The notes under the pieces are model-generated. The model did not search any database, had not been told where the DNA came from, and was given only the letters and a program-made list of their open reading frames with translations. A stretch of DNA of 64,000 bases from a virus: positions 1-64,000 of IMG/VR virus record IMGVR_UViG_3300003690_000090; one strand, written 5' to 3'. Shown here one piece after another: positions 9,201-53,240 of this stretch (position 1 is the first letter of the stretch; each line of letters begins with the position of its first letter). The position numbers were made by a program, and so were the translations under genes.

Positions 9201-11824
9201 TGGATGGCGCAGATTGGGTGAAGGGTCTTACCGATGCTGATCGGATTGCTCTCGGAGATGTGATTGGGCGTCTCGAAATGGCCATGTCGTCCTCCTACAA
9301 CAGAATCCTAGAGGTAGGCAGTTGGATTGCTGTAGCGGCAGGTGGAGAGCGTGACGCCTCGATTTTGGTAGGCATGTTGGACCACGAAAAGGCTGCTTTC
9401 TACAAGTGGTTTTACGATGGCAAATTCAGAGAGATATTTGATTATCTCTTGGAATATGGCCGTGAGACCGGCCATGTTGTCCACAAGTTCACCAGCTATC
9501 AGCCCAACCAGGCCCTGTTGAACATGATTGTTCGCTTGCGGGCCTATGAGCTCATGGGCAACGTGTCCAAAGACCTGGCCCGCTACGGATTGCTAGAAGA
9601 CGTGACCCAACTGGGCAAAGACTTGCCGCTATTTGATGCCGCCACAGGGGCATACACGGGGTTCCGTATAGACTCACATGTCGAAATGGTGCAGTTCTAC
9701 ATTCAAATGGAACTGAATTACCGAGCCACTGGGTTCCTCTACACAAAGACTGTGGATGTGTTTGATGATGCCGGTAAGGCGGTGATGGGTCCGGACGGAA
9801 AACAAAAAACCCGCACCATCCAGACCAACCGCCCGCCGCCAGCCCCCACTAGCAAAGAAGGCAAGTCGTTGTTGTCTCCAAAACGGGCTGAATACGCCAA
9901 GAGCCAGGGTTGGAAACAAGATCCTCGCATTCCTGGCAACTTCCACGAAATGGCTGCGTATACCGAAGCCATGGAAATTCTCGATCGTGCTGGAGTGAAG
10001 GTCTCCACAGAAGGTTGGGAGAGGGTCACGTTCCATGATGGAACAGAAGCTCTCATGCCGGCTGGTGCGGCGAGGGAGTACTACGATGCTCTTGACCGAT
10101 TGTCTGAAATCGGAACTGCTCGAGCAGGAGCTGCGCCAGCTCGGGCTTGGATGATCGGCAAAAAGGGGCGACAGGCGCTGGCGGAACGTCCTACCGGCGT
10201 TGAGGTAGAGCAGTGGAACAAGGTACTGGCAAAGGGCCAGCTGGGTAAAGTTATTGACGACCTAATGAAGATCTTCCCCATGACGGCCCGTCATACGAGG
10301 ATGGGCGTCACGACCGGTATTTTCCTGCCGAACCCGGCGTACTACTTTGGCGTGGCGATTGGTGCCTACTTCCAGTTGTACGAAGGCTTGGGGCCGTGGG
10401 GGGCTCTCCGGGCTGTTGCGAGCAATAATGAAATGACCATGGCGCTTGTGGCGCGTATGTACAAGGAAGGGAAATACAAGCGGTACGCAAATCCAATTGT
10501 GTCAAAAACGGGCGAAACGCTGACTGTGGATCTTATGGAACAAGAGGTCCACGTTCATGGCATGAAGTCTAGCTACGCCTACGCAGAAACTGCGCAGGGT
10601 GTTGAAACCTTGATGCACAAGACTATTCGTGATGCTCGGGCTGGGCTGTTTGGTAAAACCATGCGGAAGGTGTTCGACCAAGAACGCCTAATCGAAACCT
10701 CTACCGCTATTGACAACTACTTCCGTGTTTCGGCCTACTTGGATGCACGCGTAAGAGGCATGTCTGCAACAAAATCAGCCGAGCTCGCAAGGAAGACCGG
10801 GTTTGACTACGCGGCATTGACCGAGTTCGAAAAGAAGTACATGCGGAGCACGATTCTGTTCTATTCCTACTTCAGGAAGAACATGGATCTCTTCTGGGAC
10901 ACGCTTCTTACAAACCCGGAGCGCATCATTGGCCAGCTGCGCCTGGTCCGTGGCATCCAGCAGATTGCGCTCGAAGACGACCCCGAGGTCGTTCTCAGGT
11001 CTTACGCACAAACCAGGCTACCAGTTTGGTTCAAAAAGGCTGCAGCCAATACGCATGTACAGAACCAGTGGATGTACATAGTTCCACCGCTTCCTTACGA
11101 TGACGCGATGATGTGGCCAATCGATTTATTCGATGCCCTCAGGGGAGAAAACGAGGCCATTCGGAGTTTGGTCGGACACGTTGCGCCGTGGTGGCAGGCG
11201 CCATTCGTATTTGCCCAGGAGAAGGACCTCTTCTGGGGCAAAGAGTTGGAACTCTACAACAGGGTGCCCACCTGGTTGGTCGAGTGGGACTTGAACATGA
11301 CTGGTGGAATGCTGGTCAAAGACGTTTTCGATGTCCAACTGAGAGCTCATGCAGACCCAAACAAGGCAGATGCGCCAGGCATGGACCGCTGGTACCACGC
11401 GAGAAACGGCAAGGCTTGGTGGATTTGGCGAAACCTGCTGCAATTCCCCACTGCTGGCCGGTCCATGGACACCATCAGTTCCCTTGATCGGGCCAATATC
11501 GGGGCTGTAGAGTGGATGAACGCCAAGACGAAAGAGCTGGGCAGGGGTTGGGATCCGGCTTCTGCAGCAAAAATGCGCCCGTCTGACTTCAATGAAGACA
11601 CCATGTCGCCACGGCGAGGCCTGGAATGGTACGACGAACTCCTTGGGTTGATTGGAATTCGCCCCTTGGTGGTTGAGCATGGCGACATTGTCAGCAAACG
11701 GAAAAAGCAGCGCCACATCGCAGCACTTAGACAGGCAACGTCAAGAGCGGAGCTTTCCGATCCCTACAGATACGAGGGTGGTATTCTCAGTTACGTTGGA
11801 CCAGGCTTCAAACCACCCAAGTAG
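242..11824 (+). CDS. Giant (3860 aa) internal virion/ejection-type polyvalent protein with zincin-like metallopeptidase domains
   Basis: Uninterrupted 11.6-kb ORF; HELAH (5192-5206) and HEFTH (5816-5830) motifs; Gly/Ala-rich hydrophobic stretch near the N-terminus; C-terminal FDYAALTEFEKKYMRSTILFYSYFRKN segment resembles large phage internal proteins. Function inferred. Confidence 0.75.
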   Translation: MPRQTDDQILERYLTEGTRPVTREQAEEAIRIASEYEYLGAKPELDEEEPGEEPEEGPIDSRISRIPNEPTTLERAEVKSALRAATRADTERTPGVTPAEARRRMDSIDNRMEFYPWGHAPTLPDPPSVERVRELLPEDPDDRPAGGPNLREVRTPSVRKIIEAIDSGASDEEVEKLIGEAPISAWPDEILMTRGLMQAWGRATGPRTIEMPRTSFQRTPEVRWALKREKERYFREMLKDEGASTAMSVVWASNVTMSLEEAEKLKLYLPDAPQYDGWATAVSTLSGAGAGILSGSGVTRSLMSKIPGGTTSMSQAARFVGSKVLPRLIVAGAAAVEGGTAGAATGTPMGIAAGAIIGGAIGWASGKVYGEMTRGGEDFWKPVPAFGKAAQDDGWYFALPAGLVNLSSRAQIKLGFGTQNLIPLFLSGDDAERFRAEIARSRPTESFEQIVRELQTAKENGMSDEEIRTNLGPTLGGMVANNAWVDLPPEMRLGNLSTTKMIRWARLNPQAADDKSRPGLARIVDVINNDAYSDTTLLNALESVALGQLPEAVWHKAIPPTESMADAVLIAAGLTIEAIEATGGGAAGSRGFEQTFGRLMLRTEIRDGQPEIVEGSVGQVMRVVGAATEFYAELPIPYITPAGRDFQRSGTTMIRSPDSTYLSRILANIETGEMGFARHMTDDALARGHERGSMQYDVLGALGLLLDWTVYWERPFIASVGIPTGIGVRAHRLSKDFTSKEWALSERARMIAGGSSSWLFVKTLNPDALPVQAAINRLEDLIPGEKTLADVEAALARTAEGSLGGVERKVAQQVRDHMEGTGETYAEALNTVDKAMDADVPTVVRYLMETAVRNAIRRGDTDIWDLIPKKWHDSLRAVLKNSGQDDPTGLINEINLVSQKNGRLHLAGLERLMSEGDPGTQQLRTTPEYIRVKEGMQALVEAGDIEQHHAAWILGLMEQNAWRMAVDEDVTAIKTPVDWFRAIEVRRRGKPPEPPDDVGGGPGEPGVVPEPPRVEEPELPLPRVEEAEAPPVEEMPPASELLAGEGGLTGIYKFDKGSWQPIKARPAPLSPDAPLFSSVPRKLEHVSWEGESFGWRLPTGEGLDFPPDMQALGVEIAQQPGRKDILQALGLNQKEARYVRRLEAERPGEGRPVGLAWFTSDDLAGLRGGTLYGSLQKLTKGIRDSAQNATEARIEIVYADVLEKAVTAQERKIILDDFGDRATRLWGQRNETAPSAMVTIMPGRASEIGSYTHLADDLYGLPTKTKSIETEDGYTIVLAEPHPRWAKERVKAEAPPPRVEEPEAPTIEEVPTPKVKVKVSEPEDVPDKVRSVPVGQTLRERAMGVLKKDLSKMKKARLVKIIEDLVIIPYKDAAELKQHSRDELAGAVQRWAELYGRYPILTGKEAPGPVESGAANFQRRMAMSHIDQMSFDGHISTEGTAILHKVMDRLPSEWFERVDFRGIEDPDMLEDRRVFGKTRLKRAADSQLDDAALVQQLKAITTIQTRKATKLNQATAKKMAGKSGDELLLELSTMIDENLLRLADEKAFVNNAGFRLDDDTDFMKAATPYFVEIARRLFEDPDVKIRHGWSGMQEMLQDYARQGKIPASLVSVGFEGSILRSNSQIETILSSITNEFMGFHDKDVLVFHVLHELAHTLMKNILTDDELSAMRRAFDVHRKAGFKGWHRREDVAVVKQKSIEPVFNEWAADMLASNLLGHRGFDELMAAIEADEFGDVAASPMAVDVPGREVGVGDLSRQQLEDQLKTFDGNGQQIAEWLSENVDDPSFKVILNRIIPHLEDTEVKIVNKGDPVPGDVVRLGLASGSARGVAIAPKGEAPTVWLRGADLNHSGVSSETITHEFTHAATTKRMNDGNLVANRGTALHKAVVDLEELTDVIIKERNALVKAGKTPVGMALEGMRLNTAKEVVAWGLTNKEFQAWLRTIKVEGNKTAFTRFVELIRDLLGIEAKETNALTEVIRLTDDLLTADVAGLPARRWTAPISFSAQVREIFQGLFERIASILKRTYGDEGIIKSLDIDKDVAEYFTDFVDRLMKGEVEVENIRRIYERRSNEPRMLFSISSSKRMRPLRDVSDVEPAKMTREELDQAVQDAGFIDLPDAKRAMQDAYLPFEEYEHVYAVSRQGLGPEDIWDIPVSGKTAARVNDLRKQWESLTDDIMIRHQEGRLDGLEEMEAEAGGLLDSLHAAVAELQTDRDGISSSGWVGTEESLFKIYQEFLNSREDPKARLQAVGHRRAEAMKDKPMSKKEYDSYFAERVRSIIKSSPAAPGGETVLPMPQLAKLQAKALLNRAKKSWEKRSEVKKKNPQAENFVDEHALSAWNLQRIQVNRLPAEVQAALELTVRDAGGPRAPKPEIPGESTPPKPFEILFHGPKGEERGFFSFDFETYQALIDVLKYGNYETLVRGNALLFSKFMGDKWTQGFIKHFENVKDDAGRVTLTERGERQAARAFGYYIRSATSPHGGLKRYFDQAYITLQDYWAKIRGQVSILPPEVRNFFDQFLRPELRYEGDAIKLTENITREPPLVRLPETAAERLREEIQPRMAKRRAFWAVNTDPRVVRAELGIQEGQTHIDPVDLLVAAVGYVAAENAKKLLGPGRIFMMTPRSMVPESRRRAVLERLSAKLHASIGTNTPKWNKVTDDIPDSERPTLPTGRRWRKEKEAHLDFGGESGWHELDPAQQAGMKVLAQDLARHPMGNIVPDRFLVPDADLSTIFVDEWASIIEAVIDIEAGVGARRAHYSEAINPTQATALWMALKSGVVDLSDASNSVDGLVKNLRRMFKLEEFAGGKLGPLFRTVFEKNIRMMELAPREILALAKTALEGKKELSLQGIFLALKDTLRPPVDTSVVDDIVGTIDLKHIDRTMDHKSTGLLSLLREWTGAEKAHLYGEGTEKTSAFLRGEEQMGPGYHFATTEELQGMSKVEYIVSSHHQFERILAASNRYTDEQRINILQPLRRYAMDLEEARARGVDGADWVKGLTDADRIALGDVIGRLEMAMSSSYNRILEVGSWIAVAAGGERDASILVGMLDHEKAAFYKWFYDGKFREIFDYLLEYGRETGHVVHKFTSYQPNQALLNMIVRLRAYELMGNVSKDLARYGLLEDVTQLGKDLPLFDAATGAYTGFRIDSHVEMVQFYIQMELNYRATGFLYTKTVDVFDDAGKAVMGPDGKQKTRTIQTNRPPPAPTSKEGKSLLSPKRAEYAKSQGWKQDPRIPGNFHEMAAYTEAMEILDRAGVKVSTEGWERVTFHDGTEALMPAGAAREYYDALDRLSEIGTARAGAAPARAWMIGKKGRQALAERPTGVEVEQWNKVLAKGQLGKVIDDLMKIFPMTARHTRMGVTTGIFLPNPAYYFGVAIGAYFQLYEGLGPWGALRAVASNNEMTMALVARMYKEGKYKRYANPIVSKTGETLTVDLMEQEVHVHGMKSSYAYAETAQGVETLMHKTIRDARAGLFGKTMRKVFDQERLIETSTAIDNYFRVSAYLDARVRGMSATKSAELARKTGFDYAALTEFEKKYMRSTILFYSYFRKNMDLFWDTLLTNPERIIGQLRLVRGIQQIALEDDPEVVLRSYAQTRLPVWFKKAAANTHVQNQWMYIVPPLPYDDAMMWPIDLFDALRGENEAIRSLVGHVAPWWQAPFVFAQEKDLFWGKELELYNRVPTWLVEWDLNMTGGMLVKDVFDVQLRAHADPNKADAPGMDRWYHARNGKAWWIWRNLLQFPTAGRSMDTISSLDRANIGAVEWMNAKTKELGRGWDPASAAKMRPSDFNEDTMSPRRGLEWYDELLGLIGIRPLVVEHGDIVSKRKKQRHIAALRQATSRAELSDPYRYEGGILSYVGPGFKPPK

Positions 11825-31644: not shown

Positions 31645-31871
31645 CAAGATTGCCGCGTCATTGAGGACCCCCGCAGGCGCAGCCGTGCGTTGGCCTCGGT
31701 GTGCCCTGCCGCGCAGAAGTGGTGCGGGTACGTGCCCTCTTTGACCACGACCAACAGCTCTGCCAGGTACACCCCTTCGTCTTCTTTGACCGTCACGACG
31801 TCCAGGCGGGACAGAAGGTCTTCATCGATTTCGATGGCCGGGATGGTGTTGCTTAGTTCGTTGCGGTTCAT
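31644..31871 (-). CDS. Small protein with weak HicB-like pattern
   Basis: KEDEGVYLA...GHTEANA; AC-rich leader with GAGG RBS. Confidence 0.5.
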   Translation of the reverse strand: MNRNELSNTIPAIEIDEDLLSRLDVVTVKEDEGVYLAELLVVVKEGTYPHHFCAAGHTEANARLRLRGSSMTRQS

Positions 31872-31900
31872 GAGTTGTCCTCGTGTTGTTTGTTGTTGTC

Positions 31901-32032
31901 CTATAGTAAATAGTCGAACCTGATAACGGTGTCAAGCAAGATTACACTACCCACCGAAGCACACCCCACCAGCCAGGCCAGCATGCTGCCTGCCATCGCG
32001 CATTCCACCAAGTCAAAGTCGTATCTGTACAT
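31901..32032 (-). CDS. 43-aa membrane peptide
   Basis: GGAGG RBS; hydrophobic core; overlaps the next promoter. Confidence 0.35.
   Translation of the reverse strand: MYRYDFDLVECAMAGSMLAWLVGCASVGSVILLDTVIRFDYLL
31907..31935 (-). promoter_or_regulatory. Promoter, GTTATCAG family variant
   Basis: TTGACA-cc-GTTATCAG-N7-TATTTA followed by GACA/AC-rich leader. Confidence 0.6.
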
Positions 32033-33562: not shown

Positions 33563-33977
33563 GGTGATATTCTAAGGCCATGGCGGTAAGATTTTCCACT
33601 CTGGCACCTCAACTTTATGACCCTTGGGTGAAGGGTATGGTTAGGGGGAGTGGAGACGGGGGCCTCGCAGCCTGTGGAAATGTACCCCACCTGGCAGTGA
33701 GTAGGTGCGTGGCCGGCATGAGGCGTAAAATCAGTGATTCCAACCAGTTACGGCGCAATTATGCCCTCGCCGGAGGCCTCAACCACGCGATTCAGCATGG
33801 CCCCGTGGAGATACCCCGTGTTCAAATTTTGCGCACGCACCGACGAGGCCGGAAAAGGAGGTAGCCGCTGACGCCTGGCCCCGCGTGTCCCCCAATGGTG
33901 TGTGCCTGGTCCGGTATCAGCTCGGCCACGCCCCACATGGGATGGAGTTCTACCCGGGCCGCGCCATGTACGGAATC

Positions 33978-34014
33978 CGAATCTCGTTCGGACTCACCAC
34001 GAATCTCGTTCGGA
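33978..34014 (+). repeat. 15-bp direct repeat x2 (CGAATCTCGTTCGGA), 22-bp period
   Basis: Copies at 33978 and 34000. Confidence 0.85.
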
Positions 34015-34028
34015 TTTTGCGGGCGCCG

Positions 34029-34160
34029 CAAGTGCTACCTGGTGCACCCCCACTGCTACCCGGTCCGAGATCGGGGAGGGGGGAGGGCTACCTGGCCTGC
34101 GCCCTGGGCCTTTGTTGAAGTGCTACCTGGCCCGCTGCGCCAAGTGCTACCCGGCGCGGA
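34029..34160 (+). repeat. GCTACCYGG repeat cluster 1 (5 copies)
   Basis: CTAC cores at 34035, 34056, 34088, 34123, 34147. Confidence 0.85.
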
Positions 34161-34337
34161 ATCAAAGGGGCAGCTCCTGTGTGTGCCAGGCCCGGAAGTC
34201 TTTCGACCAGGCGGTGGAGCCGCCAATCTCGTAGAGCTCAACCAGCTGGCGCCACCCACGGGCTTCCGCCCAGGCTCGAGCAGTACCTGGCGGGCAGAAC
34301 GATGCCGCCCATACCAGGTACATGCTTGTCAGGTCCA

Positions 34338-34658
34338 CTACTTGGCCTCCGGCTTGTGGAACTCAGTGAGCGCATCGCCAAGCGCCTGGCGCAACACTCG
34401 CTTGCATGGAGCGGGGACCAACTCATCGTCGTCGTCCCACATCTCGAGGTACGGAGACTCCGGGAAGTCGTCCTCGCTGCCGACGCAGATGTCGTCGGTG
34501 ATGACGGAGACGGCGTACTGTTCTTGGTTGAGTGGAGGGGGGTCACCCTCTACCCACCAATCTAAGCCGCCAATCTGCGCCTCGCACTTGAGCCCCATGT
34601 CGTGGGCGTTGTCGCATGCTGCGTTCAGGCCGTTGAGAATGAATTCGCTGGGGGTCAT
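34338..34658 (-). CDS. Small acidic early protein
   Basis: GGAGGTG RBS, ATGA overlap. Confidence 0.7.
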   Translation of the reverse strand: MTPSEFILNGLNAACDNAHDMGLKCEAQIGGLDWWVEGDPPPLNQEQYAVSVITDDICVGSEDDFPESPYLEMWDDDDELVPAPCKRVLRQALGDALTEFHKPEAK

Positions 34659-35080
34659 GACTTCACCTCCGGCACAGCCTTGGCCTTGGCGATCACTGCA
34701 AGCCCGCGTTCTCTAAGTTCTGCAACTCGCTTCGCAAAGGCCTCCCGGTCCTTGTATCTTGGACCGCGCCCCATCCAACCCAGTTCCGTTGTCACTTCCT
34801 TGACGAAGGACATCACCCCCGGCCAGCAGTCGTCGTGTTGTCGGTCGCGCTCATCGTCGTAGACTGGCTTCTCGCAGTCGGCGCAGCGGACCTCTGGGAC
34901 CTCTGGCATCCGCACCCAGCACAGCACCCATCGCTCGTCGACCTCGAGGCCCAAACTCATCACGGAGATCCCGTCCGGCGGTAGCGGCAGTCCCTCGTCT
35001 GCCCCGGTCATGACGTGAACAACCAGGCCGTCGGTGTTCTCGATGTGCTTCATCTCATGCAACTTGATTGTGTCGCTCAT
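34655..35080 (-). CDS. Early hypothetical protein
   Basis: ATGA overlaps; CADC motif. Confidence 0.7.
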   Translation of the reverse strand: MSDTIKLHEMKHIENTDGLVVHVMTGADEGLPLPPDGISVMSLGLEVDERWVLCWVRMPEVPEVRCADCEKPVYDDERDRQHDDCWPGVMSFVKEVTTELGWMGRGPRYKDREAFAKRVAELRERGLAVIAKAKAVPEVKS

Positions 35081-35322
35081 GACGCACCCCCACCACCGTG
35101 CTTGAGGGTTTCCAGTTCGTTCTCAAACCTGTCGTAGAGTCGACAGGCTGTGTCGAGGTGGGTTTGCATGACCTCTTGGACCTCCTTGTCGATGTCGTCC
35201 TCGGGGTCACCGAACATGGTGATGTTGTCCTCCGCTTTCTGGATGTAGTCCTCGAGCATGAAGAGGACGTCTGCGACCTCGTCCGGGACAAAGAACACCA
35301 TGATTTCTTGGTGAGCCATCAT
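35077..35322 (-). CDS. Small acidic early protein
   Basis: GGAGGTG RBS, ATGA overlap; MMAHQEI start. Confidence 0.65.
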   Translation of the reverse strand: MMAHQEIMVFFVPDEVADVLFMLEDYIQKAEDNITMFGDPEDDIDKEVQEVMQTHLDTACRLYDRFENELETLKHGGGGAS

Positions 35323-36050
35323 GCACCTCCCTTCGACAGCCATTCGTTGATTTTCCAGGCACCATCCTCGTCGACGCCGTACTCCTCGAGGAGGTCTTCG
35401 CACAGTTTCTCCTCGAGGTTGAAGACGGCGTTGGCGTGTGCATCGCCAGCATAGTTGTCGACAACCAGAAGGGCGACCTGCACCGGCACCGTCATGGTCA
35501 CGAACGCGCCATCCTCGATGAGGGCTTTCCACTTCGCCTTGGTGGCGTCATCCGGGTGCAGCGGGTTGCTGGTGTCGTCCTCCGGATCCTCTGCGTCACA
35601 CTCCTCGGCAAACGCACGGCGCTCGTCCTCAAGTTGCTGGTCGGTGCTGGTGTCGTCCTCCGGAAGAAGCATGTTGATGTGCTCGGGGTCACAGGGTGGC
35701 CTGCCAAGGTAGCCATTGATGGCAGCATCGCACTCATCCTTGGCGGTGGCGTCATCAATCTCGCCCTCGTCCCATCGACCGTGCGCACGGTCAATCGACA
35801 CCCACAGGTCATCGATGGCACCCACGCGCCCCTTGCCGTCGACGAGTGCTTCGATCATCCCAAGCAACCGAGTCGCATCGCCGGGGCGGGGGCCTGGGTC
35901 GTCGCAGTCCGTGGCCGTGAAAAAGTAGTTGTCGTCCAACTCCGTGCGGTGTCGTGCGACCTCCTCTGCAAGGACAACGATGTCCCTGAGTGCCGGCATG
36001 TCGCCCTCTCCGAACTGTCCGTACTGTTGAAGTTTCTTACTGAGTTCCAT
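35319..36050 (-). CDS. Acidic early protein (243 aa)
   Basis: AGGAGG RBS after family promoter. Confidence 0.7.
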   Translation of the reverse strand: MELSKKLQQYGQFGEGDMPALRDIVVLAEEVARHRTELDDNYFFTATDCDDPGPRPGDATRLLGMIEALVDGKGRVGAIDDLWVSIDRAHGRWDEGEIDDATAKDECDAAINGYLGRPPCDPEHINMLLPEDDTSTDQQLEDERRAFAEECDAEDPEDDTSNPLHPDDATKAKWKALIEDGAFVTMTVPVQVALLVVDNYAGDAHANAVFNLEEKLCEDLLEEYGVDEDGAWKINEWLSKGGA

Positions 36051-36080
36051 GACATCCTCCTGTGTTGTGGTGTCACAGGT

Positions 36081-36109
36081 AACGTAACCTACCATGACAA
36101 CACCCGCAA
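36081..36109 (-). promoter_or_regulatory. Early promoter, GTTRTCA-family
   Basis: TTGCGG-gt-GTTGTCAT-N7-TACGTT. Confidence 0.65.
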
Positions 36110-36153
36110 AAGAAAGATGGGGTCAGGGGGGACACCACGACCTCCCTGACCCC
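36108..36153 (-). terminator. Intrinsic terminator
   Basis: GGGGTCAGGG/CCCTGACCCC stem followed by ATCTTTCTTTT on the minus strand. Confidence 0.7.
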
Positions 36154-36250
36154 TGGACTCGAGCAGGTCACTACCAACCTGAAGCCCAACAGTAATCCTA
36201 TTGCGTGCCCCAGCCGTGGTCAAGGGTGACACCGCAGCTCGTACCTGGCA

Positions 36251-36335
36251 GAAGCGCTACCTGGCCCGCCCCCGCCTGGGCACGGTCGAGTGCTACCTGG
36301 CCCGCGACCACCAGGCCGAGAGCTACCCGGTCTGT
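36251..36335 (+). repeat. GCTACCYGG repeat cluster 2 (3 copies)
   Basis: CTAC cores at 36257, 36293, 36323. Confidence 0.85.
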
Positions 36336-36528
36336 GAGCTGTGCTTCAGGCCCGCCACCAGCTGGATGGAGCCGGAACTCTAAGCTCGTGGGCGGACGAC
36401 CAGGCCAGTGTTGATGGATGAAAGAAGTCCGGCACGAACCCGCCCAACCACCCTCCACTTTGTTTAGGCCTGGACGCCCACAAGAGCCGGAGACTGGGCA
36501 GAACCCAGCCCCCGGGTTTGACCTGGTA

Positions 36529-36888
36529 CTACACACCACTGAAGCCTTTGCGCTTGGCGAGGCCCCATGCCTTGTTGATCAGGTCAAGGGTCACATCGGG
36601 ATGGATGGATCCGAGAGGCCGGTCTTCGTCCTCGTCGTCTACCAGTTCAGGTTCGGCACCCGTCAGGTTCTCCCAAGCATTGCATATGGCTTGGTTCGAG
36701 TCGCAGTGATCTCCAGTGGCGCAGTACTTGTCGCCATGCCCTTGTTCCAAGAAGGCGAGGTTCTGCTTGTCAATGAGCAGGAGGGTCTCGGGTTCATTCG
36801 TGAACCACGCCTGCATGACGCTGCGGAACTCTTCCGCCAGCGCCTCTGGTGTCGGGGGAAGAGGGTCAGTAGAGAGTCGGTCGGTCAT
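36529..36888 (-). CDS. Small acidic early protein
   Basis: GGAGGTGACGTCATGA junction. Confidence 0.7.
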   Translation of the reverse strand: MTDRLSTDPLPPTPEALAEEFRSVMQAWFTNEPETLLLIDKQNLAFLEQGHGDKYCATGDHCDSNQAICNAWENLTGAEPELVDDEDEDRPLGSIHPDVTLDLINKAWGLAKRKGFSGV

Positions 36889-37052
36889 GACGTCACCTCC
36901 TCTTCATGCCCAGCGCTGCACTTCGGGCACGCCTCCGCGTGGCACTTCTTGCACAGCATCGTGTCGTCGTCGTCGCCAATCCACTCGGCAGACCAGATGC
37001 TCACGACCTCGCCGCATCGGTTGCAGGGATCCCATTCTTCTGGAAACGTCAT
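36885..37052 (-). CDS. Small Cys-rich early protein
   Basis: CNRC, CKKC, CPKC; same junction. Confidence 0.65.
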   Translation of the reverse strand: MTFPEEWDPCNRCGEVVSIWSAEWIGDDDDTMLCKKCHAEACPKCSAGHEEEVTS

Positions 37053-37285
37053 GACGTCACCTCCGCAACGATGTCTTGTGCTTCCCACGCTGCGTCGTCG
37101 AACCCTCGTCCGCCAAGCGGGTCGTCTTCGTGGTCCGTGACGAACTCGTCGGAGTCCGAGTGGTCCTGTCCGTTGTTCAGCCAGTCCTCTGCCTTCGCCT
37201 TGGCCTCCTCCGGGGAGGAAGCCAAGACGGTGACGTCTGCGAACTCAATCTTGGTTCTTACCAGTGGAACTGTGTACTCCCTCAT
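37049..37285 (-). CDS. Small acidic early protein
   Basis: VLASSPEEAKAKA motif; same junction. Confidence 0.65.
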   Translation of the reverse strand: MREYTVPLVRTKIEFADVTVLASSPEEAKAKAEDWLNNGQDHSDSDEFVTDHEDDPLGGRGFDDAAWEAQDIVAEVTS

Positions 37286-38145
37286 GACGTCACCTCCGAC
37301 CACTCGCCGTTGTCGGTCTCTTCATGCGCGGCGTCCTCGGATTCCCAGCACCAACTCATGCCGCCGACGGACCACACGGGCTCGTCGATGCCTTCGATGG
37401 TTTGGGGAAACCAGACCTCGGGCTCGTCCAAGGTCTCGCCATTCACGCACGGGACATGCACGTTGCCTTCATGCCAGTCCATCTCGTTGTCGTAGCCAGC
37501 GTTGCACTGGGTCATCACCGCTTCCATCTGCGCCTTGGTGAAGTAGGGCACGCGCCATCCGTTACACGTCTGGCCAAGGCAGTAGCCTTCGACGGTATAG
37601 TCGAAGAACTCCATGTAGAAGTGCTTGATGGTTGCCTTGTACTTCGGGGTGCTTGGCAGCCTGCCCATGTGGATGTCGACTTGCTCTGGCGTCCACAGTG
37701 GTTGGCGCACGCGGATGGTGATGCCAACCTCATGGTCGGCGTTCTCTCCTGCCTCGTTCAACACCTCCACGTCACAGCGCGAGAGGTACACATGCAACTC
37801 CTCTGGCACAACGCCATTGGTGGTGCGGAACTGTGCCGGCGGGTTGTCGTCGTGCATCCGATTAAGCATTGCGAAGAACTCGCAGAGTTCGACATGCTCG
37901 TCTGCCTCGTCGGGTTGACGATCTGAACCCCAGGGACGAGTCCGGTCAGGGTCAGCGGGGCGAGAGGTGATGCCGTAGTCACCAGACCGTTGGAGTGCGG
38001 CGCTGACGATAGAGGCAAGCACGCCTTCTCGGCTGATGGACCGGCACATTTCTCTGCCGTCACAGTAGCCAGTCCAAATCAGTTCGGGCGGTCGCTGGTC
38101 AGTGCTTCCAGTAGCAAGGTGGTTGGTGAGTTCGTTGATGTCCAT
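37282..38145 (-). CDS. Early hypothetical protein (287 aa)
   Basis: AC-rich leader, GAGG RBS; NGWRVPYF and WCWE motifs. Confidence 0.7.
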   Translation of the reverse strand: MDINELTNHLATGSTDQRPPELIWTGYCDGREMCRSISREGVLASIVSAALQRSGDYGITSRPADPDRTRPWGSDRQPDEADEHVELCEFFAMLNRMHDDNPPAQFRTTNGVVPEELHVYLSRCDVEVLNEAGENADHEVGITIRVRQPLWTPEQVDIHMGRLPSTPKYKATIKHFYMEFFDYTVEGYCLGQTCNGWRVPYFTKAQMEAVMTQCNAGYDNEMDWHEGNVHVPCVNGETLDEPEVWFPQTIEGIDEPVWSVGGMSWCWESEDAAHEETDNGEWSEVTS

Positions 38146-38223
38146 GGTGTCCTCATGTTGTGTGTGGTGTCGGCGGGGGAAGCCCTCCCCCAAGGGATAA
38201 GTATCACGGTAGGCAACGGCGGG

Positions 38224-38463
38224 CTACCTCCACGACCCGGGGCATGCCTGCTTGGCGGCGAGCACGGAGGCATAGGAATGCTCGACGCAGTTGTCGCGCC
38301 ACACCTCGGCGACCGGCACGATGCGCCCGCTGGTCAGTACGGTGTACCCGGGTAGGGGACACACGCTTTGGTCGGTCACCTCGTCCCACTCGGGGGAGGT
38401 CTCGTAGCACATGGCGCCCCCGACGAGGACGGCAACAGCGTAGGGGAATCTATCGGTAGTCAT
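38224..38463 (-). CDS. Small early protein
   Basis: Family promoter, leader and GAGG RBS. Confidence 0.6.
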   Translation of the reverse strand: MTTDRFPYAVAVLVGGAMCYETSPEWDEVTDQSVCPLPGYTVLTSGRIVPVAEVWRDNCVEHSYASVLAAKQACPGSWR

Positions 38464-38494
38464 GATTGTCCTCGTTGTGTGTGGTGTCACAGGT

Positions 38495-38522
38495 AACGTA
38501 ACCCGCCATGACAACGGCGCAA
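38495..38522 (-). promoter_or_regulatory. Early promoter, GTTRTCA-family
   Basis: GTTGTCAT-N7-TACGTT; near-identical to the 36081 copy including leader. Confidence 0.7.
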
Positions 38523-38531
38523 CACAGCGGG

Positions 38532-38700
38532 GCAGCGCTACCCGGTCCGCCGCCCCCTGGGCAGAGCTACATGGACCGCCGCCCGCAAGGCAAGCGCTAC
38601 CCGGCCTGCCACCAGCCGGAGCTCCTGTTGGAGCCGCGCATGAGCTGGGCAAGCGCTACCCGGACCGCTCCCAACTGGGCGAGTACTACCCGGACCGCTG
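38532..38700 (+). repeat. GCTACCYGG repeat cluster 3 (5 copies)
   Basis: CTAC cores at 38538, 38567, 38597, 38656, 38686. Confidence 0.9.
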
Positions 38701-38778
38701 CCCACCGTTGTTACTATCATCCGCCTGGTCAACTCGAACCCGGGCAGTTCCGATCTCGCCGGCCTGGGCTCGAGACGC

Positions 38779-38813
38779 AAAGAAGCCCAGCCGACCTAGT
38801 GGCCGACTGGGCT
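38779..38813 (-). terminator. Intrinsic terminator
   Basis: AGCCCAGTCGGCC-acta-GGTCGGCTGGGCT then TCTTT, after stop at 38845. Confidence 0.7.
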
Positions 38814-38844
38814 CGGGTGCCGGGCTAAGCCCGGGGACACCACC

Positions 38845-39153
38845 CTATGGCTCTGGCATGTTGTGCTCATCGCCGAAGAAGTAGCCCTGATCTGGCGCGT
38901 TCAGCGAGACCTGGTATTCGGTCGGCTTGCCTGCTTTCTCCCAACACGCGACATGGTAGCAGCACACCTCCATCACGTTGGATACCTCCGCGCCATCCAC
39001 GCGCCCATACCCGTCGTACTCGCCTTGGCGGATCGTGCCGTCCTTCTCGATCACGACCACCTGGCGCATCCAATTGTTGATCGGGCTTGTCGCCCATTCA
39101 CTCAGCATGGGGTGCTGGCATGCGTTGCAGTTAGCGCTGAAAAATCCCATCAT
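38845..39153 (-). CDS. Small Cys/His-containing early protein
   Basis: MMGFFSANCNAC...YDGYG...HVACW; ATGA overlap. Confidence 0.7.
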   Translation of the reverse strand: MMGFFSANCNACQHPMLSEWATSPINNWMRQVVVIEKDGTIRQGEYDGYGRVDGAEVSNVMEVCCYHVACWEKAGKPTEYQVSLNAPDQGYFFGDEHNMPEP

Positions 39154-39326
39154 GCACCCCCTTCGGTCTTGTGGGGCGTTGTCTTGGGTGCCTTGTACCA
39201 AAACCGTTCTTCCTTGCACCACGACAGCCCGGTGTAGATAATGATCTGCCCCTCGTTGTCCGTGTCTATCGTTGCAAGGGGCAGCAATTGTGCGAGTGCT
39301 TGTACCAATTGATCCATAGTCATCAT
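39150..39326 (-). CDS. Small early protein
   Basis: DNEGQIIIYTGL; ATGA overlaps. Confidence 0.6.
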   Translation of the reverse strand: MMTMDQLVQALAQLLPLATIDTDNEGQIIIYTGLSWCKEERFWYKAPKTTPHKTEGGA

Positions 39327-40072
39327 GCACCCCCTTCTGCCTTGCGCCACCCGGTGTACCGGTTGACCTTCGGACCGTGCGCGACGATGGCCACCGACGG
39401 GCGACGGGCACCCCTCGAGGTACCATCGCACTGCCTGCAGGATGCGCAGTCCAGCACCTTGCCTGCTTCCTCTGCAGCCGGGCACACCCGTTCCCACGGT
39501 TGCAAGGCTTCGGTTGCAAGGCGCGTTCTAAACGTCCGCCATCCCAGCGAATGAGCGATCGTCGCTTCGGCGGGTGTGTCGACCGACGCCATGACAAGAT
39601 CCGCCCATTCGGACGCGTCCAGATCTGGCCACCTATGATCGTATCCGGTCCACCCCTTGGCATCCTGCAGCATCGCACGCCATGTGGGAGAGGGTACGAC
39701 CGACGGGTTTCCATAGGTACCCATCCGAACCATGCGACCGTCAAGGTGCGCGGGCAATTCCGAGACGTCCGGGCGGATCACGTTGCCCCGGTGGTACGCT
39801 TGCCAGACTGCAAGCGGACCCCGGAAGGCGAGCACGTAGCACGCGCCAGACCCGCCCGATGCGACCGAACGGTGTCCGCAGTCCCCGCAGACTGCGACGT
39901 CATCCCCGGACCGGATAGCGTCATGTGGTGCGATATCCCTGTGCATAAGGTAGGTCTGGACCAGATCGCCCGTCTTGGCATTGGCGGACTGGTAGTCAAG
40001 GTCCTGCGTGATCCCGATAATCGGTGATCCGTCTATGGGCGATGGCCCCTCATAGAATACGATGCGTCGCAT
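39323..40072 (-). CDS. Cys-rich phage protein, possible Fe-S/radical-SAM-like enzyme
   Basis: NAKTG, CGDC...CYV, CPA, CASCRQC, AHG motifs. Confidence 0.65.
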   Translation of the reverse strand: MRRIVFYEGPSPIDGSPIIGITQDLDYQSANAKTGDLVQTYLMHRDIAPHDAIRSGDDVAVCGDCGHRSVASGGSGACYVLAFRGPLAVWQAYHRGNVIRPDVSELPAHLDGRMVRMGTYGNPSVVPSPTWRAMLQDAKGWTGYDHRWPDLDASEWADLVMASVDTPAEATIAHSLGWRTFRTRLATEALQPWERVCPAAEEAGKVLDCASCRQCDGTSRGARRPSVAIVAHGPKVNRYTGWRKAEGGA

Positions 40073-40120
40073 GTGGTGTGTCCGTTGTTTGTGGTGTCCG
40101 ACGGGTAGCCCGTCCCATGT

Positions 40121-40148
40121 AATGTAACCCGCCCTGATAACGGGGCAA
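40121..40148 (-). promoter_or_regulatory. Early promoter, GTTRTCA-family
   Basis: TTGCCC-c-GTTATCAG-N7-TACATT. Confidence 0.7.
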
Positions 40149-40154
40149 CCCGTC

Positions 40155-40325
40155 GCAAGCGCTACCCGGACCGCCGCCCACATGCCGGGAGGCCTGGCAC
40201 AATGCAAGCGCTACCCGGACCGCCGCCCACATGCCGAGGCGCAAGCGCTACCCGGACCGCTATGAGCTGGCACAATGCAAGCGCTACCCGGCCCGCTGCT
40301 GGCAAGCAAGCGCTACCCGGTCCGC
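40155..40325 (+). repeat. Repeat cluster 4: GCAAGCGCTACCCGGNCCGC x5
   Basis: Copies start at 40155, 40204, 40241, 40277, 40306. Confidence 0.95.
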
Positions 40326-40385
40326 TGCCCGCTGGGCACGACCTTGTGGAGCCGGAGACCTGGTCTCGCATGCGTGTCTCGATGG

Positions 40386-40413
40386 GTGCCCCGTTATCAG
40401 AACAGGTTACATT
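40386..40413 (+). promoter_or_regulatory. Early promoter, GTTRTCA-family
   Basis: GTTATCAG-N7-TACATT then GACA leader and GGAGG RBS. Confidence 0.7.
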
Positions 40414-40442
40414 ATCCATGGACACAAACCACGGAGGTCCAC

Positions 40443-40766
40443 ATGAAACCCCCCACCTTTGAAACCCACAACGACACCAAGGTCGACATCAATGGCACGC
40501 ACCTGCAGGGGCACATCGACACCACGTTCGGTGCCCTCGTTTGCACGTTCGGAGAACCGACAGTCGGTGACGAATACAAGATCGACTGGGAATGGGAGAT
40601 TGAGTTTGCAGATGGCACCGTTGCCACTGTCTACAACTGGAAGAATGGCCCCAACTATTGCAGGTCCGGAGGGAAACGCGCCAACCAGATCACCGATTGG
40701 CACGTTGGCGGTCACAAGGGTGAAGCGTTGGCGCTGGTGCAGCAGGCGCTGGGAGGTCTGGCATGA
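40443..40766 (+). CDS. Conserved-looking small phage protein
   Basis: LQG, FGEP, EW, TVYNWK, WHVGG pattern; GGAGG RBS. Confidence 0.75.
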   Translation: MKPPTFETHNDTKVDINGTHLQGHIDTTFGALVCTFGEPTVGDEYKIDWEWEIEFADGTVATVYNWKNGPNYCRSGGKRANQITDWHVGGHKGEALALVQQALGGLA

Positions 40767-40987
40767 TCTATCGAGGTAGCCTCGCAGAAGGTCCAGCGCG
40801 TGAGTCCGACGGGTTCCCCAAGTGGATTGAATGGAAGGGGGTGCAGTACCAGACACCCCACTATGACGTCATCCATGAATGGGTCTATGACAGCATTGTG
40901 GATGCCATCGACGGCACCCCCATCGAGCCCGATGGGATCACCTGTGAGGGTTGCCCCTCATGGCTGCTGGCATTGGGTCTGATCTAA
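40763..40987 (+). CDS. Small phage protein
   Basis: EPDG...PSWLLALGLI; GGAGG RBS, ATGA overlap. Confidence 0.7.
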   Translation: MIYRGSLAEGPARESDGFPKWIEWKGVQYQTPHYDVIHEWVYDSIVDAIDGTPIEPDGITCEGCPSWLLALGLI

Positions 40988-41025
40988 ACACGACACCGGG
41001 AGGTAGGGATGGAATAGCGCATCCG

Positions 41026-41057
41026 CCCCGTCATCCGCAAGGGTGGCGGGGTTTCCT
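41026..41057 (+). terminator. Intrinsic terminator
   Basis: CCCCGTCATCC-GCAA-GGGTGGCGGGG then TTTCCT. Confidence 0.65.
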
Positions 41058-41074
41058 ATTGGCCTGGTGCAAGC

Positions 41075-41143
41075 GCAAGCGCTACCCGGACCGCCCCCGC
41101 CTGGGCACGGGACCGTGGAGCCGTAAGCGCTACCCGGCCCGCC
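41075..41143 (+). repeat. GCTACCYGG repeat cluster 5 (2 copies)
   Basis: CTAC cores at 41082 and 41130; first copy shares about 34 bp with the 36252 copy. Confidence 0.9.
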
Positions 41144-41209
41144 ACCGGTTGTGTCTACTATCATCACACCAGCTGGCAGCTCCGACCTGGTAGAGCTCAA
41201 GCCCAGCAC

Positions 41210-41246
41210 AAAGAGAAGCCCCGCCGAGCTTGGAGCCGGGCGGGGC
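41210..41246 (-). terminator. Intrinsic terminator
   Basis: GCCCCGCC/GGCGGGGC stem then TTCTCTTT. Confidence 0.6.
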
Positions 41247-41278
41247 GGTTGGCCTGGTCGAACGTTAGGCCGGTGAGA

Positions 41279-41374
41279 TCAGTCGTCGGGTGGCCTGGGC
41301 AGAATTGCCATGGCGCAGAAGAAGAGAACGACAAGGGCAGTGCATGCCAAGGTGGTCATGAGGAAGTCGAACAT
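41279..41374 (-). CDS. 31-aa membrane peptide (not in ORF track)
   Basis: MFDFLMTTLACTALVVLFFCAMAILPRPPDD*; AC-rich leader, weak RBS. Confidence 0.35.
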   Translation of the reverse strand: MFDFLMTTLACTALVVLFFCAMAILPRPPDD

Positions 41375-41466
41375 GTGGGGCCTGGTCTTGTGGTGAGTGA
41401 GTTGTTTTGATTTGGTTTGGGGGTGCGGGACGGGAGGAACCACCCTCCCGCCCCGGGTTGTACAAC

Positions 41467-42093
41467 CTACCCAAGCATTTCCTCTGCGCCGATGGACTTG
41501 CCGCCCATGACCAGACTGTCAAAGTTGGAACCATCCAGGCGCAGACCGTAGTTCCTCCAGTACCGTTGGCGCAGGTCAAAGGTGTGCTTGACCCACGGCT
41601 TGATGCCGGTGGTGATCTTGGTGCGCACGGTTTCGGCACGCTTGACTTCGGTTCCCTCTGCTGCTGCGCCCTTCCACATTTCCAGACCGACCACAAGAAC
41701 CTCGTCCTCATTCTTGGGGTTGCGCATCAGGCGACCGTCAACCACGGTGACCAATTCAGTCTTGCGGTCATGCTCACCGGCAAGGGACTTGCTTGCGCTT
41801 GCGATCAATTCATCAATCGCAACGGCGATATCAGCAGCAGTGGGAACCATGCGGATAGGGTCCGCGCCCTTCTGGCGAACCAGCGGGTTGACCATGTCAG
41901 GGTGTGCAGCCAGTGCCACGGGGTCAAGGGACCGGAGGGTTTCCAAATCCTTTCGGATGACGTTCTTGTACGACACGCCGATCTGCAATTTGCGATGCCG
42001 GCTTTCGCCTTCTTTCGTGACATGTCCACGGATGAAGGCGATCTGTCCGCCTCCGGTTTCGGCAATCATGGTTTCGATGGTGGGGGTGGCCAT
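41467..42093 (-). CDS. Early hypothetical protein (208 aa)
   Basis: GGAGG RBS before MATPTIET. Confidence 0.7.
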   Translation of the reverse strand: MATPTIETMIAETGGGQIAFIRGHVTKEGESRHRKLQIGVSYKNVIRKDLETLRSLDPVALAAHPDMVNPLVRQKGADPIRMVPTAADIAVAIDELIASASKSLAGEHDRKTELVTVVDGRLMRNPKNEDEVLVVGLEMWKGAAAEGTEVKRAETVRTKITTGIKPWVKHTFDLRQRYWRNYGLRLDGSNFDSLVMGGKSIGAEEMLG

Positions 42094-42142
42094 GGTTGGC
42101 CTCCATTGGTTTGGGTTGTCACCGGAGGGTTCCGGTACAAAC

Positions 42143-42170
42143 AACCTATCGTCATGGGTGATAACGTCAA
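42143..42170 (-). promoter_or_regulatory. Promoter containing GTTATCA
   Basis: TTGACG-16 bp-TAGGTT. Confidence 0.55.
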
Positions 42171-42247
42171 GGGCACAGCCCGACCCCTGGCCCCCATGCC
42201 CCATGCCGGCATGCCCCCACACCCCCGCGTTACCTGGCATACACCCA

Positions 42248-42360
42248 CCAAGTGCTACTCGGACCGCCACCAATTGACCAAGAGCTACCCGGACCGCCAT
42301 CAATTGAGACCAACCAAGCGCTACCCGGACCGCCATCAATTGACGGAGTGCTACCTGGCG
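42248..42360 (+). repeat. Repeat cluster 6 (4 copies, three followed by CAATTGA)
   Basis: CTAC cores at 42255, 42285, 42321, 42351. Confidence 0.92.
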
Positions 42361-42413: not shown

Positions 42414-42441
42414 ATGCACCGTTATCAGAACGGGTTACATT
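42414..42441 (+). promoter_or_regulatory. Early promoter, GTTRTCA-family
   Basis: GTTATCAG-N7-TACATT then GACA leader and GAGGTG RBS. Confidence 0.7.
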
Positions 42442-52736: not shown

Positions 52737-53240
52737 ATGGACACCACGAAAAAAGGCGATCGGCCATCTGAAGTTGTGCAATGGATCGATCCAGAAGCCT
52801 ACAACTTCGAACCCACGGACCGGCAAAAGGCATTTCGCAGGCATGTTAGGCACTGCGTAACCAACGGAATCTTTCTCAAGAGCCGCTGGTACACCGAGTG
52901 CCTGAAATCAAACGCCGACAAGCTGAAGAAGCACCCAGTTGGCTCGAGTGATTGGCGGCAGTGGGTCAAAAAGGCTGGATTTCTGGCCTGGTTCTACGAA
53001 GAGTTCCCAGAGGTTGACCCCATTTCGGACGAAGAGCTCCGGATGATGGACAACAAGTGGTGGGATGGCGTACTGCAGGCCATGCACGAAGGAGAAGAGT
53101 GGGCGTACAAGATTTTCGCTCGCGTGCGCTTCCACAATGCCGAGATTGTACAAGCCAAAGAAGAAACCAAAGAACTCAAAGACTACCTCGGGCGCGACAG
53201 TGCGGGCGGGGCATGGCGGCTTCCATCTGCTGAGGCCTAA
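52737..53240 (+). CDS. Probable terminase small subunit
   Basis: Size and TAATG coupling directly upstream of the large subunit; positional inference. Confidence 0.55.
   Translation: MDTTKKGDRPSEVVQWIDPEAYNFEPTDRQKAFRRHVRHCVTNGIFLKSRWYTECLKSNADKLKKHPVGSSDWRQWVKKAGFLAWFYEEFPEVDPISDEELRMMDNKWWDGVLQAMHEGEEWAYKIFARVRFHNAEIVQAKEETKELKDYLGRDSAGGAWRLPSAEA

Follow-up and report, generated by a model that had tools for sequence, protein, structure and literature searches.

The subject of this work is a set of short repeats in the early region of an uncultured phage, located in a window of 64,000 nt that comprises bases 1-64000 of the 72,988-bp viral record IMGVR_UViG_3300003690_000090. The repeats are copies of one asymmetric 18-base word, which stand on the + strand in six intergenic clusters, C1 to C6, mostly at the boundaries of early transcription units that are read leftward. 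We tentatively propose that the 18-bp words are asymmetric binding sites in double-stranded DNA for a phage-specific protein, with the arrays controlling early transcription. The proposal is based on the asymmetry of the word with its free centre, the location of the arrays at the early-unit boundaries, the single orientation that is kept in three lineages, the concerted change of the word between the lineages and the apparent purifying selection on its letters; from these we infer both that a protein would bind the sites and that its binding would affect transcription.

With up to 3 mismatches allowed, the pattern AAGYGCTACCYGGNCCGC matches at 24 places in the window, 23 of them on the + strand, where they span 33945-42333, and the sole match on the - strand, at 53670, is a weak one (3 mismatches). 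In 100 dinucleotide-preserving shuffles the mean number of matches was 0.48 and the maximum 4. With two additional degenerate copies, at 36318 and 42346, the count rises to 25, which bears out the first-pass annotation of this DNA, where about 24 copies in six intergenic + strand clusters had been reported and a scan of both strands had been suggested as a check. The 9-mer core GCTACCYGG gives the same picture in the window, with 21 occurrences on the + strand, all at 34034-42350, and 0 on the - strand. Over the whole record, with no more than 1 mismatch, the motif matches 13 times in the forward direction and never in reverse, the control of the motif read backwards gives 0 and 0, and the part of the record beyond the window contributes no copies. 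The consensus is gcaAG.GCTACCcGG.CCGC, and the copies at 38-42 kb are perfect or close to it while those at 34 kb are more degenerate (2-3 mismatches, with a range of 0-3 given for C1), a gradient that had been described correctly. It is noted that the motif is interrupted by 1-2 variable bases, so that it has two conserved parts, as would be given by a protein that touches two adjacent grooves.

All of the copies lie outside the accepted genes of our own gene map, which was made from frame analysis of GC content at third codon positions (GC3) and from start codons. Long open reading frames (ORFs) do cross the arrays. We judge the arrays to be untranslated, and reject the idea of coding repeats, because the spacings of copies (29, 37, 49 and 59, for example) are not multiples of 3 and because indels of 1-5 nt separate the arrays from those of a close relative.

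When the region is read on the - strand, five of the six clusters (C1, C2, C3, C4 and C6) stand directly upstream of - early units, with C6 leading to ATG 42093, C4 to the ATG 40072 of the gene for a DUF7227 protein, C3 to the unit starting at 38463, C2 to the unit starting near 36051 and C1 to the gene 33562-33071. At such a boundary, in the - direction, one unit ends, in some cases a terminator-like hairpin follows, and then come the array, a promoter-like element and the next unit (Table 1). At C5 no leftward promoter or gene adjoins. It was proposed in the first-pass annotation that the orientation of the motif follows the chromosome rather than transcription, in contrast to the stoperators of mycobacteriophages. 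This is inconsistent with the position of five of the six clusters upstream of - early units and with the same-strand placement of the clusters in the relative G001 described below, and the logic of orientation is the same as that of the stoperators. The spacings quoted there for C3 and C6 are right, but the description of the sites as phased does not hold, since the spacings vary from 21 to 85 in this phage and take the values 25, 28, 31, 34, 55 and 62 in G001, so that no single helical face is maintained.

A second conserved element, called P here (24-27 nt, CCGTTRTCAKNNCRGGTTACRTTA), occurs five times, at 36080(-), 38494(-), 40120(-), 40391(+) and 42419(+), adjoining C2, C3, C4 (on both sides) and C6. 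By eye, P would read as a sigma-70-like promoter followed by a leader of the ACACCACA type and a start codon. The edge of C3, which comes after the - terminator-like hairpin 38787-38806, lies 10 bp from the -35-like hexamer of P 38495-38522, and the edge of C4 lies 8 bp from that of P 40121-40148 (-); on its other side, C6 is 50 bp from P 42414-42441 (+). Altogether the arrays are accompanied by 5 promoter-like elements and 3 terminator-like hairpins. Sigma-54 promoters were considered and rejected: TGGCAC-N5-AAGC is present in 2 spacers of C4, a single cluster, and is not conserved.

Table 1. Coordinates in the window of the clusters, the promoter-like elements (P), terminator-like hairpins and two genes adjoining arrays
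Feature	Coordinates	Strand	Description
Cluster C1	33945-34159	+	6 degenerate copies; flanked by the end of the - unit 36051->34338 and by the - gene 33562-33071
Cluster C2	36252-36335	+	3 copies, spacings 36, 30; about 140 bp upstream (- direction) of P 36081-36108
Cluster C3	38533-38698	+	5 copies, spacings 29, 30, 59, 30
Cluster C4	40157-40325	+	5 perfect copies, spacings 49, 37, 36, 29; flanked by divergent promoter-like elements
Cluster C5	41077-41142	+	2 perfect copies; flanked by the convergent units 40443-40987 (+) and 42093-41265 (-)
Cluster C6	42250-42363	+	4 copies, spacings 30, 36, 30; upstream of the first leftward gene 42093-41467
P	36081-36108	-	degenerate, 3 mismatches to the 24-nt pattern
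P	38495-38522	-	TTGCGC, 16 nt, TACGTT (hexamers by eye); then ACACCACA leader and ATG 38463
P	40121-40148	-	TTGCCC, 16 nt, TACATT (hexamers by eye); heads the unit opening with the DUF7227 gene (ATG 40072)
P	40386-40413	+	heads the two-gene unit 40443-40987 (inverted relative to G001)
P	42414-42441	+	heads the rightward arm: first ATG 42470, C5-methylase gene 42986
Terminator-like hairpin	38787-38806	-	ends the - unit upstream of C3
Terminator-like hairpin	41216-41231	-	ends the - unit upstream of C5
Gene 42093-41467	41467-42093	-	first leftward early gene, 208 aa, no known family
DUF7227 (PF23872) gene	39323-40072	-	immediately follows the strongest array in each of the three lineages

The arrays stand at syntenic places in three lineages, the present one included, and copies were counted in the related records G001, G002, L269 and L270. 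G001 (69,735 bp, stored as the reverse complement) is syntenic with the present phage over the whole genome, with identities of 73% for TerL, 62% for the portal protein, 82% for the major capsid protein and 52% for the helicase, and in it CCARGTCGCRYC occurs 19 times on one strand and never on the opposite one, inside 6.2 kb at the syntenic place; the counts for G002 are likewise 19 and 0. Placed on our backbone, the G001 consensus is cGgTGCGACtTGG.cCG.Cccc.aAC in the same direction as ours, and in an alignment made by eye it is identical to ours at 12 of 18 positions and differs by C/T transitions at 4 others. Four cluster regions of G001 were read in sequence, and each is upstream of a gene on the early-gene strand, the array being followed by two TGTCAAGG boxes and then by a promoter-like pair consisting of TTGCCA, 17 nt and TAAGAT or CATATT. 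The G001 version of the motif is also that of L269 (18 copies, all on one strand). L270 (record G006, 72,060 bp) represents a third lineage and was reached via an alignment of DUF7227 proteins; ACCAGATCGCGCC is present there in 9 exact copies, all on the early-gene strand, against an expected 0.04, and these copies form four clusters upstream of the homologs of gene 42093-41467, the DUF7227 gene and gene 33562-33071. The reverse complement of ACCAGATCGCGCC is GGCGCGATCTGGT, which fits the skeleton GYGCKAYYYGGNNCG common to the three lineages. Within each genome all copies carry that genome's version of the motif, which fits a co-evolving reader protein.

The placement was also scored by a script, in which a cluster counted as positive when a same-strand ORF with a Shine-Dalgarno sequence was found within 450 nt downstream of it. 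The positives were 5 of 6 clusters here, 4 of 6 in G001, 3 of 4 in L269 and 3 of 4 in L270, or 15 of 20 in sum. Note that at C4 the script chose an internal TTG, the DUF7227 ATG 40072 being 85 nt from the array, and that among the misses is the cluster preceding the homolog of gene 33562, the start of which has no Shine-Dalgarno sequence.

Constraint on the motif can be estimated from a 5,833-bp metagenome contig (L184 + L185) that is 87-92% identical to window 35890-41429. In the aligned intergenic DNA, diverged sites make up 15 of 255 specified motif positions (5.9%), 18 of 215 spacer positions within the arrays (8.4%) and 143 of 872 positions in the remaining intergenic DNA (16.4%), and at the N position of the motif they make up 7 of 15 (47%). 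This distribution suggests that the motif letters are under purifying selection. The number of copies in C4 is 5 here and 4 in the contig, and C5 is at consensus in both phages, which differ there only at N.

Among metagenome contigs there are at least 124 loci with the array pattern, mostly single chance matches, the true relatives being only L163 and L184-L186; the five core matches of L023 are scattered and were taken as chance. The exact 18-mer is present at 10 loci in other viral contigs, in a single copy each and with no further copy at up to 3 mismatches, and these were also taken as chance. In the collection of bacterial and archaeal genomes, 20 loci have one match each, in GC-rich genomes, and no arrays were found; therefore the motif is not a host repeat. 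A search with the 107-aa protein of gene 40443 gave two records, L019 and L020, one of which is G001, and searches for relatives with the 303-aa and the 247-aa proteins alone gave none. DNA similarity to cultured phages was not found for 33-43 kb.

Based on the binding-site reading, the arrays of 2-6 sites would mark the boundaries of the leftward early units, lying past the terminator of one unit and ahead of the sigma-70-like promoter of the next, with every site oriented alike relative to early transcription. An early and possibly injected phage protein would occupy the arrays and act on RNA polymerase in an orientation-dependent manner, and the effect might be either to block read-through between units or to tune the adjacent early promoters, by timed shut-off or by activation. 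The orphan cluster C5, which is kept just past a terminator, would favour the function of a boundary or roadblock over that of a pure upstream activator.

The nearest logic that has been described appears to be that of the stoperators and operators of Cluster A mycobacteriophages, here in the form of tandem arrays. According to the passages cited, stoperators are 13-bp asymmetric sites that number more than 20 in a genome and lie in promoters and in short gaps between genes, with an orientation that is tied to transcription and with inverted sites losing their effect (PMC9283540, PMC6550527), and the subclusters of Cluster A have divergent repressors and motifs (PMC6550527). The present sites resemble those of the L5 gp71-type repressor, as portrayed in these sources, in being asymmetric, in a copy number within 20-30 (25 here), in lying in promoter and intergenic DNA, in having an orientation that correlates with transcription and in having variants between relatives (PMC9283540, PMC6550527). 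By contrast, they measure 18-24 bp rather than 13 bp, they form tandem arrays of 2-6 rather than single sites, they are limited to one 8-kb early region, and no repressor, integrase or other sign of lysogeny was found with them.

Several points weigh against the proposal. Among the phage proteins no integrase or repressor family was found with Pfam, PHROGs and NCBIfam, most proteins having no family at all, and thus a silencing role of the lysogeny type is unsupported. The early proteins in particular gave no match in the three databases, and no DNA-binding protein was recognised among them. The relatives that share about 50% identity in the helicase (L043, L045-L057) have no motif. The hexamers of P reach only 8 of 12 positions of the sigma-70 consensus, and a consensus promoter scan made no call. 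Since C5 is perfect and has no leftward promoter, an array cannot serve solely as a site ahead of the next promoter. Array and promoter are 8 bp to about 350 bp apart and the spacing of copies is not helically phased, which argues against an activator that needs a precise geometry. Upstream arrays are also present at two + strand promoters, in the opposite relative orientation. Moreover, the orientation of clusters amounts to few independent data, as there are six clusters and the relatives share ancestry.

We also looked for the protein that might bind the arrays. The product of gene 42093-41467 is a speculative candidate by co-occurrence, having homologs in all three array-bearing lineages examined (26-30% identity). 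No homolog was found in three array-less records, all of them fragments, or in G007, a truncated record that does bear arrays. Its structural model has a predicted local distance difference test score (pLDDT) of 81.7. A further point against the proposal is that no DNA-binding fold can be recognised in this model: with Foldseek nothing matched, the best VIA-align Z score (6.0, an Sm-like protein) is under the noise level, and the protein atlas contains nothing above 0.82. The 107-aa protein was rejected as the binder, its 20 homolog loci including array-less phages. The DUF7227 protein was rejected as well, being 40-49% conserved across many unrelated phages; its model (pLDDT 94.8) has weak fold matches, all of them to radical S-adenosylmethionine (SAM) enzymes with viperin and QueE as the best (Z 4.3), and from this weakly radical-SAM-like fold the protein is probably an enzyme rather than a binder.

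We further considered the bolder idea that the arrays are the cis half of an early-operon control system that is so far undescribed, belonging to a lytic and uncultured marine lineage, in which a protein of no known fold, possibly the product of gene 42093-41467, sits on tandem polar sites at all boundaries of early units and acts in an orientation-dependent way on RNA polymerase or on the entry or nicking apparatus of the 8 kb that enter first. In this full form we regard it as rather unlikely. If the control-system idea is true, the three natural variants of specificity would be ready orthogonal pairs of protein and site. In a lineage where nearly all early proteins lack known function, the arrays represent a conserved set of cis elements that offers a handle for finding the regulator, and the three versions of one skeleton are a natural experiment in which the reader and about 20 dispersed sites would have changed together. 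If the sites are polar roadblocks in a lytic phage, control of the stoperator type would no longer be peculiar to temperate actinophages, and should they instead be nick or entry signals, an old unexplained feature would have been met in a new form.

The genes around the arrays bear on the alternatives that are weighed below. The sequencing runs that hold parts of the phage are labelled as seawater, marine or hydrothermal-vent metagenomes. The - strand at 18.4-31.3 kb encodes RecT-like and RecE-like proteins (19-21 kb), a helicase, a primase, a DndC-like protein, a methyltransferase, a QueC-like protein and a second helicase, and at 31-42 kb it has small genes of no family. The + strand from 42.47 kb onwards encodes the C5-methylase, RusA, TerL (at 53240, by PHROG), the major head protein and internal virion proteins, and past the arbitrary break of the record it continues with a 3,860-aa virion protein, a tail fibre protein and an endolysin. 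The 3,860-aa ORF (242-11824, +) matches the PHROG family 'virion RNA polymerase' (phrog_2206, E 3.4e-14). A PDB sequence search with residues 1000-2400 of the protein found no chain of the N4 polymerase and matched only the 'internal virion protein' 9sfn_G (E 7.5e-9), in a stretch containing HExxH, and for this reason the polymerase identity of the giant protein is treated as putative. The ORF preceding it runs off the end of the record (L266 9145-9987 is concerned here), so the break may cut a still longer gene.

The promoters of T7-like single-subunit RNA polymerases are about 18-23 bp long, asymmetric and phage-specific, and it could be argued that the 18-mers are tandem promoters of such a phage polymerase that fire leftward at the head of each early unit. 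The length, the asymmetry, the orientation towards the early genes and the lineage variants do resemble promoters of the T7, T3 and SP6 type, five of the six clusters are upstream of - units, and the match to phrog_2206 would provide a polymerase, though the PDB search described above did not return one. To our knowledge, stacks of 2-6 promoters placed 25-37 bp apart are not known for single-subunit polymerases. Moreover, sigma-70-like elements are already present between array and gene, and it would be expected that C5 fires antisense into a convergent unit. N4-type promoters, of which the source describes three early ones for the virion RNA polymerase, need a hairpin formed by inverted repeats around a GC-rich heptamer (PMC4496689); the arrays share with them the location in the early region and the single direction of all copies, but they number 25 copies rather than three and have no hairpin. 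In single-strand DNA folding, the two strands of C4 gave z values of -0.12 and +0.78 relative to shuffles and six units of 30-41 nt gave -0.78 to +0.78, thus no better than shuffles, and N4-type hairpin promoters are therefore unsupported; Rfam gave no family and a single sub-threshold match. Polymerase promoters are on the whole unlikely. Iterons, that is, binding sites of a replication initiator, with one or more origins where the transcription arms diverge, are to be considered because they typically consist of direct repeats of 18-24 bp whose conserved core has two parts and because iteron arrays such as those of lambda ori, P1 incC/incA and P4 ori/crr have asymmetric cores in direct repeats of about 18-22 bp, sometimes at several loci. 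The present arrays are tandem direct repeats of this kind (an 18-bp core within the 17-22 bp of iterons, in arrays of 2-6), the strongest array, C4, is at a divergence point, and the minimum of the cumulative GC skew falls at about 38-40 kb. This skew switch is, however, confounded with the switch of coding strand. Further, six loci across 8 kb are present in place of one or two beside or within an initiator gene, the spacing is irregular (25-59 bp) rather than about 22 bp, no array adjoins an AT-rich unwinding region, the lowest GC contents of 60-bp stretches within 31-44 kb being at 31867 and 42433 in promoter or leader regions, and no initiator gene was recognised. We thus hold the iteron explanation to be improbable.

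Sites for strand-specific nicks made by a phage nickase in virion DNA, as in T5, the phiKMV-like phages and Pseudomonas phage tf, would explain why all copies are on one strand, which is the non-coding strand of the early arm. The known nick sites, so far as we know, are single and scattered and do not form tandem intergenic arrays within one 8-kb region. No nuclease was recognised in the region here, and the data are assembled contigs, in which nicks leave no trace. In the source on these phages, so far as it is cited here, the consensus sites are confined to a single strand and have variants in relatives at similar positions, as do ours; the tf site is TACT/RTGMC, with 14 sites all on the top strand, and that of the phiKMV group is CGACxxxxxCCTA/CTCCGG on the non-coding strand (PMC3517423). 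By eye CCTACTCCGG resembles GCTACCCGG, a likeness to the phiKMV consensus that is short and could be chance, and we take nick sites to be very unlikely. If the arrays were polar signals for the entry or packaging of the genome part that enters or leaves first, as was proposed in the first-pass annotation, the arrays in one orientation would fill the first 8 kb of the early arm, and the map would be N4-like with ends near 42.4 kb, the early and replication genes running one way and the virion and lysis genes the other way and converging at 18 kb. The record and G001 are, however, broken at different and arbitrary places, and the presumed terminase genes are far off at about 52.7-54.8 kb (TerL at 53240, and TerS at 52737 solely by the label of that annotation). 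An entry or packaging system with six arrays of 18-mers is not known to us, and transcription already explains the placement at unit boundaries, so that this proposal is the least probable of those weighed. What stands of the directional process suggested earlier is that the sites are polar and probably serve one, whereas for packaging, entry or replication as that process no positive evidence emerged. Readings as G-quadruplexes, methylation sites or sites of a host factor were dropped by eye, G001 and L270 having no relevant subsequences.

The arrays might also serve as homology anchors, at which recombination aided by RecE and RecT would shuffle, delete and duplicate gene cassettes, in the way described for T4-type phages, where, as far as the cited text goes, PeSL (promoter-early stem-loop) modules made of an intergenic promoter and a stem-loop terminator bracket variable small genes (PMC2839356). 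In agreement with this idea, the region is hyperplastic, as 4 of the 15 genes tested between C1 and C6 have a homolog in G001, modules of terminator, array and promoter bracket the variable genes, which are mostly unknown here as they are around PeSLs, and RecE-like and RecT-like genes are present. In addition, joints were seen in metagenome contigs, from 42298 to 41103 (runs X2 and X6, from copies in C6 to copies in C5), along with a change in copy number from 38622 to 38675 and a 21-nt deletion at 40269 (run X6). These joints were detected at 85% likeness inside repeats and may be alignment effects, hence they are weak evidence. In the comparison with the 87-92% identical contig, by contrast, the replaced segments are bounded mostly by gene starts and ends and by the gap between array and promoter, outside the arrays; they comprise the 90 nt from C4 to the + promoter and, for the 107-aa gene, exactly the stretch from its start codon to the next gene. 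It had been suggested to check whether breakpoints of gene content in relatives fall in the clusters; that the region varies in gene content between relatives is correct, but that the arrays are where the cassettes are exchanged does not follow from these breakpoints. The conservation of 17 specific letters with N free and the concerted changes between lineages also point to a reader of sequence rather than to homology, PeSLs have no array of a separate 18-bp word, and recombination between modules is only weakly indicated here. Homology anchors are thus quite unlikely, and our proposal remains the reading of the 18-bp words as binding sites of a phage protein that controls early transcription.

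The homolog of the 107-aa gene in G001 is on the early-gene strand, and since that gene is on the + strand here, the two-gene unit 40443-40987 is taken to be inverted in the present phage. Such an inversion would account both for the orphan C5 and for the position of C4 between divergent promoters. The inverted unit (window 40330-41070) includes its own promoter-like element and terminator. A 35% homolog of the 107-aa protein is encoded in an unrelated viral contig (L038 4461-6137), which has same-strand intergenic clusters of its own, of AAGGCCGCAAGC at spacings of 15-34 bp.

Some smaller sequence elements near the arrays are recorded here. In G001 (L020/L268) and in L270, the gap between array and -35-like hexamers contains a pair of direct TGTCAAGG boxes at a distance of 12-13 bp, which might be recognised by a second factor; the phage under study has no such pair. 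Past the final repeat of both C3 and C5 (38705-38720 and 41150-41165) there is a short box, ACTATCA (TGTTACTATCATC in this phage), which recurs in either orientation after the arrays of G001 (via L020/L041), and CCCTATCA is present in L043 and L052 beside terminator hairpins and (GC)n runs. Between motif copies 1 and 2 of C1, at 33975-34016, there are two direct copies of a 15-nt palindromic unit (TCCGAATCTCGTTCGGA-like). In the array-less helicase relatives L045, L048, L049, L051, L052 and L057, a start-associated AGGAGGTGAGTGATG is present at many early gene starts, with up to 10 copies, in L051.

The DUF7227 protein has invariant Cys and His residues, and QueC-like and queuine-tRNA-ribosyltransferase-like genes are located at 28-29 kb. 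Because of these genes in the same phage and the fold match to QueE, the protein might belong to a 7-deazaguanine DNA-modification pathway. Finally, an extra promoter-like element, GTTATCAG ... TACTAT, is present at 31867-31930 (-) before the gene 31871-31644, with no array adjoining it.

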